DNA of 17,695 nt. It comes from a virus. Lineage: Duplodnaviria; Heunggongvirae; Uroviricota; Caudoviricetes. Positions 17,088 through 17,695 of the stretch are shown here, piece by piece. The notes beneath the pieces were generated by a model. That model had not been told where the DNA came from. It did not search any database and was given only the letters and a program-made list of their open reading frames with translations. The translations under genes were made by a program, and so were the position numbers. Within the stretch, counting starts at the first letter, position 1. The number at the start of each line of letters is the position of its first letter. Location of the stretch: positions 1 through 17,695 of the IMG/VR virus record IMGVR_UViG_2562617151_000007. One strand, written 5' to 3'.

Positions 17088-17183
17088 AAGCGAAGCTTAT
17101 ACATATCTTTTACATCAGCAATCTATTGTTAATCTCCAATCAATGTTACGTTGTCATCTCACTCATGCTTTGGAGGTAGTGAT

Positions 17184-17363
17184 ATGTCTTGTCCAAAATG
17201 CGGTTCTGGAAATATTGCAAAAGAAAAAACAATGCGTGGATGGTCTGGTGATTATGTGTGCTGCGATTGCGGATACAACGACTCTAAAGACGCATTTGGA
17301 GAGCGTGGTAAAAACGAGTTTGTTAAAATTAATAAAGAACGCGAAGGCAACGAAAAAAGCTAA
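17184..17363 (+). CDS. Zinc-ribbon small protein (59 aa)
   Basis: ATG 7 nt after GGAGG. Two Cys pairs (CPKCGSG ... CCDCG) form a zinc-ribbon pattern. Followed by a terminator. Confidence 0.5.
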   Translation: MSCPKCGSGNIAKEKTMRGWSGDYVCCDCGYNDSKDAFGERGKNEFVKINKEREGNEKS

Positions 17364-17428
17364 TTTATTTATTCATATATGAAAACAATGTAACCAATAT
17401 TCGAATTGAAGAACTGAAAGAACACCAA

Positions 17429-17450
17429 GCCGCCTGATGGCGGTTTTTTA
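17429..17450 (+). terminator. Rho-independent terminator
   Basis: GCCGCC-TGAT-GGCGG followed by TTTTTTA, downstream of the zinc-ribbon ORF and upstream of the excisionase gene. Confidence 0.6.
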
Positions 17451-17459
17451 TTACCTGAT

Positions 17460-17475
17460 TTGCAGGTTCGATTCC
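17460..17475 (+). other. tRNA-derived 16-nt fragment (T-arm-like TTGCAGGTTCGATTCC), possible att-related remnant
   Basis: Contains the canonical tRNA T-loop GGTTCGATTCC, but the following bases (CTATT) cannot pair to close a T-stem, so it is not a functional tRNA. Recalled as identical to part of the argW T-arm. Confidence 0.4.
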
Positions 17476-17494
17476 CTATTCGGAGATAGCACTC

Positions 17495-17695
17495 ATGCAA
17501 CACGAACTACAGCCTGATTCACTGGTTGATTTGAAATTCATCATGGCCGATACTGGCTTCGGTAAAACCTTCATCTATGACCGGATTAAGTCCGGCGACC
17601 TGCCAAAAGCCAAAGTTATCCACGGGCGAGCAAGATGGTTATATCGTGACCATTGTGAATTCAAAAATAAGCTCTTAAGCCGCGCCAATGGGTAA
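17495..17695 (+). CDS. torI: Excisionase / recombination directionality factor, TorI-like (winged-helix, AlpA/Xis family)
   Basis: 66-aa ORF MQHELQPDSLVDLKFIMADTGFGKTFIYDRIKSGDLPKAKVIHGRARWLYRDHCEFKNKLLSRANG, recalled as near-identical to E. coli TorI. At the opposite end of the element from the integrase. Confidence 0.8.
   Translation: MQHELQPDSLVDLKFIMADTGFGKTFIYDRIKSGDLPKAKVIHGRARWLYRDHCEFKNKLLSRANG

Follow-up and report, generated by a model that had tools for sequence, protein, structure and literature searches.

The leader of torI, the excisionase gene at the right end of a deleted P22-like prophage, contains a fragment of the tRNA gene argW that is homologous to this gene beyond chance and that is neither attR nor a functional att core. 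The fragment overlaps a 13-mer whose conservation among diverged relatives indicates that it is under purifying selection and was not recently acquired. The element belongs to the torI-attP-intS module of argW-integrating phages and is not a prophage boundary. We read it tentatively, with slightly more doubt than confidence, as a degenerate copy of the attB left half that does not recombine and that would act as a putative cis element of the torI leader.

Layout of the window and the torI module

The window (the whole stretch of DNA analysed, 17,695 nt) runs from the start codon of intS on the left to the stop codon of torI on the right (Table 1). The deleted P22-like prophage between these two genes carries genes for a tailspike, Ant, a CI-like repressor, an HNH endonuclease, RecT and Gam, and eaG. 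Next to a gp20-like DNA-transfer gene (6724-8565, minus strand) comes a truncated O-like replication gene (8713-9378, minus strand), and the region 6724-9378 on that strand looks like the joint of a deletion that cost a P22-like prophage its head, lysis and late-regulation genes. The integrase had been taken to be of the P4 type in the first-pass annotation, and its Pfam domains (Arm-DNA-bind_3, Phage_int_M and Phage_integrase) confirm this; the gene is 95-97% identical at the nucleotide level to annotated intS genes. On the intS side, argW and the attL core are situated immediately beyond the window, and in near-identical E. coli prophages the flanks are yfdC-argW on the left and dsdC on the right.

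The product of torI is 100% identical to TorI of KplE1 (CPS-53) of K-12, to HkaC of HK620 and to gp18 of Sf6. The gene is the last one of the rightward early operon and has a leader of 45 nt. The open reading frame before it has a counterpart that near-identical relatives annotate as 'Eag protein' or hkaD. The linker between the two genes, consisting of the 3' flank of eaG and the terminator, is common not only to lambda but also to P22, Stx and HK phages. Homology to the lambdoid phages stops a few bases past the T-run of the terminator, giving the torI module a sharp mosaic boundary, and three distinct upstream contexts in E. coli converge at that T-run. We also observed the same torI module joined to a lambda-like (Bet/Exo) prophage in strain 2013C-3264 (L171). 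On the minus strand, positions 17418-17545 gave a weak Rfam match to the enterobacterial sRNA STnc130 (24 bits against a gathering threshold of 55, E=0.23), which runs antisense over the start of torI into the terminator, lacks a promoter-like site and was taken as noise.

Table 1. Features of the window that bear on the torI leader (positions in the window).
Feature	Position	Strand	Remarks
intS	1..1158	+	P4-type heterobivalent tyrosine integrase; left end of the prophage
eaG-like open reading frame	17143..17382	+	final gene of the early-left operon ahead of torI
Lambdoid linker ending in a terminator	17390..17452	+	98% identical to lambda 29103-29165 and to P22, Stx and HK phages
Intrinsic terminator	17427..17449	+	stem 17427-17446, T-run to 17449; from terminator scan and sequence
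TTACCTGATTTGC	17451..17463	+	counterpart of the HK620 'cII protein' site TTGCCTGATTTGC; first repeat TTAC here
argW T-arm copy TTGCAGGTTCGATTCC	17460..17475	+	16/16 identical to argW nt 46-61
Family-conserved 13-mer AGGTTCGATTCCC	17464..17476	+	proposed attB-like left half-site (B*)
Pseudo-overlap CTATTCG	17476..17482	+	between the half-site copy and the ribosome-binding site; left breakpoint region of natural deletions
GGAG, Shine-Dalgarno of torI	17482..17485	+	9 nt to the ATG; GGAG(A)T block kept in relatives
torI	17495..17695	+	66-aa excisionase (recombination directionality factor) at the right end of the window

A copy of part of argW precedes torI

A tRNA fragment had been placed between a terminator and the excisionase start in the first-pass annotation, and both neighbours were found where this description puts them. 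The sequence TTGCAGGTTCGATTCC has one exact occurrence in the window and no second copy there with up to three mismatches. An alignment to the host gene had been proposed, and it places the complete 16-mer in the tRNA gene, at nt 46-61 of argW of E. coli K-12 (L002 455-470). By chance, about 5e-4 exact 16-mers common to argW and DNA of the size of the window are expected. The fragment comprises the end of the variable loop, the 5' strand of the T-stem, the T-loop and the first two nucleotides of the 3' strand of the T-stem, and the match runs on through CCT if one inserted C is allowed; 19 nt separate it from the ATG of torI.

The T-loop of the fragment is canonical (G-TTCGATT-C), while the T-stem can be closed by only 2 bp (GG/CC) and the acceptor strand is absent, in agreement with the earlier description of a T-loop lacking its closing stem and acceptor. 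ARAGORN found no tRNA in the window and Rfam gave nothing tRNA-like there at E<=10. These two results, the 2-bp T-stem and the missing acceptor rule out an intact or partial tRNA gene.

In argW, TTGCAGGTTCGATTCC adjoins, on the left, the published 16-nt att core of the KplE1, HK620 and Sf6 phages. The last C of TTGCAGGTTCGATTCC is the first C of the core CTGCAGGGGACACCAT, so the fragment corresponds to the left flank of the crossover region of attB. After GATTCC the leader reads on as CTATTCGGAG and not as the core. The same leader is found upstream of torI in K-12 (L002 10376-10391), where it is identical to that of the window, and in HK620 and Sf6. Of 5426 complete E. coli genomes, 1407 (about a quarter) have a match to the 250 nt from just past the terminator stem through torI (17446-17695).

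The att core lies beyond torI

The published 16-nt att core, CTGCAGGGGACACCAT, is formed by the 3' end of argW (PMC2951348). It has no match in the window with up to three mismatches. In T28R (L001 4337-4352), K-12 (L002 10685-10700) and HK620 (attP core, L003 2470-2485) the true core follows the stop codon of torI with 73 nt between, and the K-12 record annotates it as the prophage end together with the pseudogene pawZ. The attR core of relatives thus starts 74 nt beyond the torI stop, next to dsdC, and the window's own attR core would, by analogy, start 74 nt past the end of the window. The position of the core beyond torI in relatives means that torI is inside the recombined, mobile segment; the first-pass annotation had considered that the fragment might be the real attR core, with the excisionase gene outside that segment, and neither idea held.

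It is exceedingly improbable that the fragment is the genuine attR or an additional active crossover site. In its favour are only the tRNA origin and the rare deletion junctions described below, whereas the overlap and the tRNA 3' end are missing from the fragment and the true core is found past torI, and on these grounds the fragment was rejected as a functional att core. Experiments on related phages point the same way. In vitro, excision proceeds with a 135-bp attR whose sequence begins within the last 20 nt of torI (PMC3509656); this attR recombines although it omits the fragment, which is thus not needed for excision in vitro. Deletion of the 17-bp attB abolishes the integration of Kapi1 at argW (0/24 colonies versus 19/20; PMC8787464), and the att site of Kapi1 is the 16-nt core of this module plus one extra base.

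Conservation and origin of the leader element

We gathered torI homologues from annotated phages, from pattern matches in IMG/VR and from one genome per species. In some 20 lineages of the Enterobacterales the GGAG of torI homologues is preceded, at a distance of 4-7 nt, by the centre of the element, (A)GGTTCGATTCC(C). The block (C)AGGTTCGATTCC(C) was found in E. coli, Escherichia sp., Edwardsiella, Pantoea stewartii, Pantoea sp., Citrobacter, three Enterobacter species, Phytobacter, Salmonella phage g341c and the Erwinia phages Midgardsormr38 and phiEt88. The usual order is this block, 4-7 nt, GGAG(A)T, about 8 nt and the ATG; in Serratia fonticola the block is present but precedes an AGGAG site by about 13 nt. 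Within the motif-bearing set the identity of TorI to that of the window goes down to ~36-39%, and the CAGG part is not kept in the more distant TorI subfamily.

A comparison of the window with nine diverged lineages showed that 11-13 of the 13 positions of AGGTTCGATTCCC are identical, whereas synonymous third positions of torI are only ~50-65% identical and the upstream 30 nt ~40%, which argues for selection on the 13-mer and not for recency. In Erwinia phage Midgardsormr38 (L006 1955-1990) two tandem copies of CAGGTTCGATTCCC stand 16 nt apart upstream of the excisionase gene, a duplication that suggests a protein-binding site.

The element is absent from Klebsiella phage Chronis, Erwinia phage EhrS_49, Tatumella, Morganella, several Pantoea and the Yersinia group. 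The leader of Dryocola and Enterobacter R1 reads terminator-ATTGCC(T/C)G-GAGGAAA-ATG, as if a block of ~25 nt had been cleanly removed. Since functional relatives such as Chronis and EhrS_49 do without it, the element is dispensable. The motif goes together with argW-type cores as the target in all TorI/IntS relatives that have it, and it is lacking in the Yersinia group, whose core is different. The leader of alpA of CP4-57, which encodes another AlpA-type directionality factor, contains no copy of the ssrA T-arm, so the feature seems specific to this module family. Two further candidates for comparison were dropped, P22 because eaC follows the shared terminator, and the Pseudomonas F116-type phages with TorI-like proteins because of their convergent xis/int layout.

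The edges of the element differ between lineages. Serratia keeps CAGGTTCGATTCCTG, which corresponds to 15 nt of argW, and Pantoea sp. keeps GGTTCGATTCCTG; in Edwardsiella and P. stewartii the 3' strand of the T-stem, CCTG, is kept after one extra C. The E. coli form CCCTATTCGG and the P. stewartii form CCCTGTTCGG differ by one base. In most lineages the part of the leader between the element and the ATG aligns with the remainder of argW, TGCAGGGGACACCAT, better than shuffled sequences do (p 0.005-0.1, for lineages that are not independent). An extended homology of the leader and the start of torI to the P' arm of island B (CAC-CATGCA-CAC) was not significant (p=0.26). The element is probably, judged from the matches of the leader to argW, an old second copy of the 3' half of argW from which the crossover region was lost. 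Loss of the overlap from a second copy of the att core would have prevented the integrase from deleting torI.

A scar of tandem integration had also been suggested for this fragment; as a neutral scar it would be the leftover of an old att site or of a tandem integration, without a present function. The element is tRNA-derived, its edges decay differently between lineages and several relatives do without it, as would be expected of such a scar. However, the 13-mer is identical at 13 of 13 positions across lineages whose neutral sites are near saturation, which implies either selection or a very recent transfer of about 13 nt alone. We consider a neutral scar very improbable, the 13-mer being conserved where its flanks and the synonymous sites have diverged.

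Candidate promoter, operator and hairpin functions

The GenBank record of HK620 annotates in this leader a 'promoter, phage integration' together with a 'cII protein' site, TTGCCTGATTTGC, and that of Sf6 a 'pI; possible integrase expression promoter', a stretch which the Sf6 record also labels 'boundary sequence'. According to this annotation, cII would activate transcription of the integrase during lysogenisation and the tRNA-like bases would be a mere spacer between the cII repeats and the -10. The map position, right after the shared terminator and before the excisionase gene, is that of pI in lambda, where the shared linker leads into the cII site TTGCGTGTAATTGC of pI, with xis next. Moreover, in HK620, which has the TTGC repeats, the 13-mer AGGTTCGATTCCC corresponds exactly to the 13 nt from the second TTGC to the hexamer TATTCG, the same spacing as in lambda pI. 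Unlike in lambda, however, the repeats are TTGC-N5-TTGC and not N6, one of them is mutated in the window and in K-12 (the window has TTAC-N5-TTGC), and neither a recognisable -10 nor a sigma-70-like promoter was found on either strand. In addition, conservation outside the E. coli group is seen for the supposed spacer but not for the TTGC repeats or the '-10', and the annotation was made by analogy only, no experiment being found behind it. A pI-type promoter is therefore improbable. As to the first repeat, TTAC is found instead of the TTGC of HK620 at 17451-17454 of the window and at L002 10367-10370 of K-12; the retrieved viral contigs mostly carry TTGC, with a sizeable TTAC minority (42 versus 16 for the two commonest variants).

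The T-loop of the fragment also holds GTTCG, which is one of the pentamers (GTTCG, GATCG and GTCCG) that make up the TorI sites in attL (PMC2951348). TorI represses intS through such pentamer sites, so a TorI operator giving autoregulation of the excisionase could be imagined here. The sites I1-I5 in attL share GTTCG with the fragment, which differs from them in being a single copy as opposed to an array, in a conservation that reaches well past the pentamer and in being kept in a phage whose directionality-factor sites look different. The P' arm of this phage, phiEt88, has no GTTCG-type sites versus 3-6 in the other five phages examined, and yet the full 13-mer AGGTTCGATTCCC is kept, so the element does not track the site specificity of the excisionase. 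We regard a TorI operator as quite improbable, more so than the promoter. The P' arm of phiEt88 has three GTAAC/GTTAC in place of the GTTCG-type pentamers, and this arm (attP at L010 2210-2470) contains repeated GATGTAACC and GCGTTACCC motifs and GGGCATA arm-type repeats, which suggests that in this phage the specificities of the directionality factor and of the arm-type sites have changed while the argW core was kept.

The close distance of the motif to the Shine-Dalgarno sequence (4-7 nt in the relatives, ~13 nt in Serratia fonticola) fits another function, at the level of RNA. The T-loop-like sequence in the torI mRNA might act as an anti-Shine-Dalgarno, its UUCC pairing with GGAG and, in many relatives, its GGUU pairing with an AACC just before the AUG; such a leader hairpin would limit the translation of TorI from read-through transcripts. 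In RNAalifold and single-sequence folds the hairpin GGUU..AUUCC-loop-GGAG(A)U..AACC is the minimum free energy fold in 9/12 lineages, and in Citrobacter, phiEt88 and Pantoea BAV, three lineages, it is better than shuffles (z -2 to -3). Variants keep or improve the pairing, for instance GATTTCC in Citrobacter, GGAGUA in phiEt88 and Pantoea, wobble-compatible changes in E. bugandensis and UUCCUG/CAGGAG in Serratia. Against this, compensatory double changes were found in none of the nine pairs, the hairpin of the window type has only 4 bp and is no better than shuffles (-6.3 kcal/mol, z -0.18), and the same holds for the fold of the 81-nt leader (z -0.23). Further, GGTT and the unpaired CG do not vary, not even in E. 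coli and Midgardsormr38, where the partner AACC is altered, so pairing alone does not explain the conservation. A hairpin masking the ribosome-binding site is the main rival to an integrase site but is unlikely as the main function; the two are compatible.

The element as a proposed integrase half-site

Of the candidate readers of the element we rank the integrase first and the RNA hairpin second, and both may act together. The sequence GGTTCGATTCC is the left flank of attB, and in many lineages the left flanks of attP and attR read as the similar TTCGATGT, which is T-loop-like. In every motif-bearing module with downstream sequence an argW-type core (TGCAGGG...) was found. From the inverted repeat GATGTC/GACACC we infer that the overlap is TGCAGGG, and if so, the conserved 13 bp are exactly the adjoining half-site. 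The core-binding domain of the IntS family would have to read GGTTCGATTCC in attB as well as the similar TTCGATGT in attP, and an integrase recognising both should also recognise the orphan half-site in the leader. The element is thus probably, as far as these sequences tell, an attB-like site that is recognised by the integrase.

Core-type sites usually bind integrase weakly by themselves, which counts against this function. The arm-type GGGTAAAAT repeats begin right after the stop codon of torI, so that a bound integrase, perhaps bridged to these repeats, could occupy or loop out the region of the torI ribosome-binding site. IntS is constitutively present in lysogens (PMC2951348), and its occupancy next to the Shine-Dalgarno sequence could damp the production of the excisionase. 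The binding of the integrase to the element and the regulatory effect are both inferred. The more specific possibility that IntS reads the orphan attB half-site as an operator that sets the excisionase threshold, and that recombination of the same site with the core occasionally deletes torI, is worth considering but doubtful.

We also observed a motif, AATCCCCTG(C), that is present on both sides of the core across genera, about 25 nt to the left and in the P' arm, where it adjoins an IHF-like sequence ATCAAG (e.g. L003 2440-2455 and 2520-2530); no protein is assigned to it in the literature covered here.

Natural deletions of torI

Another finding was that the leader is the endpoint of natural deletions that remove torI. 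When the 250 nt of leader and torI were used in a BLAST search, one genome, that of E. coli E10, matched the first 38 nt only. E10 (NZ_CM143887.1, L166 2495-2545) has a P22-like prophage at argW up to the junction TTGCAGGTTCGATTCC-CTATTCGG-GACACCAT, which is followed by the P' arm and the integrase of a second argW island. A second case, GATTCC-CTATTCG-GACACCAT, came from a pattern search of IMG/VR (L173 4528-4551, UViG_2778261619_000010). In both, a deletion of ~292 bp joined the pseudo-site of the leader to the att core as GATTCC-CTATTCG(G)-GACACCAT and removed torI, the P arm and the left half-site of the core. In the second case exactly 7 nt remain between the half-sites, as would result if the strands were exchanged at the right-hand edge of the overlap proposed above.

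The precursor was likely, from the arrangement of the flanking sequences, a prophage with torI and a normal attR core directly before the same island. This arrangement is seen in strain 7_11_88A (L168), and tandem occupancy of argW has the general form of a P22-like or lambda-like intS/torI prophage followed by a genomic island with its own P4-type integrase, with the attR core of the prophage doubling as the attL core of the island. At least 80% of the junction query is covered in 66 genomes, most of which show this arrangement; all 25 matches listed, many of them from O26:H11 strains, are two-piece matches spanning torI. Among the 276 genomes with at least 80% coverage of the island-junction query are cases of the island by itself at argW. 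A BLAST search with a synthetic junction for the same deletion at a plain attR (on the dsdC side) gave no such case among the 15 matches listed, all of which were in two or three pieces spanning torI.

Since both endpoints are at the two att-like sites, the deletions support the reading of the leader element as a pseudo-att site; for binding or cleavage by the integrase they are indirect evidence. The two junctions have a microhomology of 2-3 nt (GG or GGA) and differ by one G, so that a microhomology-mediated deletion could have occurred in place of integrase action, and the two junctions may represent one event with a homopolymer difference. If the integrase was involved, the pairing of the leader site with a genuine core would be a side effect of the half-site in which torI and the P arm are lost and the prophage is locked in.

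Discussion

The closest kinds of known sites are, on the one hand, secondary (pseudo) att sites and, on the other hand, recombination-protein sites that double as operators, like those of IntS and TorI at attL. The fragment shares with the att core of KplE1 (CPS-53), HK620, Sf6 and Kapi1 its origin from argW, where it abuts the core, and its association with the same intS-torI module. It differs from this core in that it lacks the overlap and the tRNA 3' end, occupies an internal position in the prophage, ahead of torI, does not occur in duplicate at the two prophage ends and is not needed for recombination. With the secondary att sites of the lambda family it has in common a partial resemblance to the core with one good half-site, and rare junctions at the edge of the overlap. 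Unlike those, it lies in the phage's own genome next to the directionality-factor gene and is conserved across genera, and is thus not a chance chromosomal site.

Integrase bound at att represses its own promoter at attL (PMC2951348). This autoregulation is similar to what we propose in that sites of recombination proteins double as regulatory sites, a principle already established for this module; there, arm-type sites act on the intS promoter, whereas here, by analogy, a core-type half-site would act on torI. What would be new is that a core-type half-site is kept next to the gene for the directionality factor. The parts of the KplE1, HK620, Sf6 and Kapi1 literature covered here contain no mention of the tRNA identity of the leader, of its conservation or of torI-deleting junctions. 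Menouni et al. 2013 (PNAS) and Panis et al. 2007 (JBC) reportedly describe torI transcripts and the IntS and TorI sites mapped on attR. The first-pass annotation was right about the argW origin and close with an 'ancestral or secondary att site', whereas attR and a mere scar, two other options it raised, did not stand; it missed the conservation beyond E. coli, the pI annotation of HK620 and Sf6 and the torI deletions.

In KplE1-type prophages the production of TorI is regarded as the main control point of excision, because the integrase is always present, and the silencing of torI is only partly understood. If the element is inert, it is a well-documented att-related relic and nothing more. 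Otherwise, a conserved tRNA-derived site of the integrase type (or an anti-Shine-Dalgarno) would provide a concrete and mutable target for studying the control of torI, also in K-12, where the sequence is identical. If the proposal is true, it would mean a previously undescribed coupling of the integrase level to the control of excision and a built-in route to the domestication of prophages, in which the deletion of torI fixes the prophage in the chromosome. The torI-deleting recombinants suggest a simple molecular route to such locked-in prophages.
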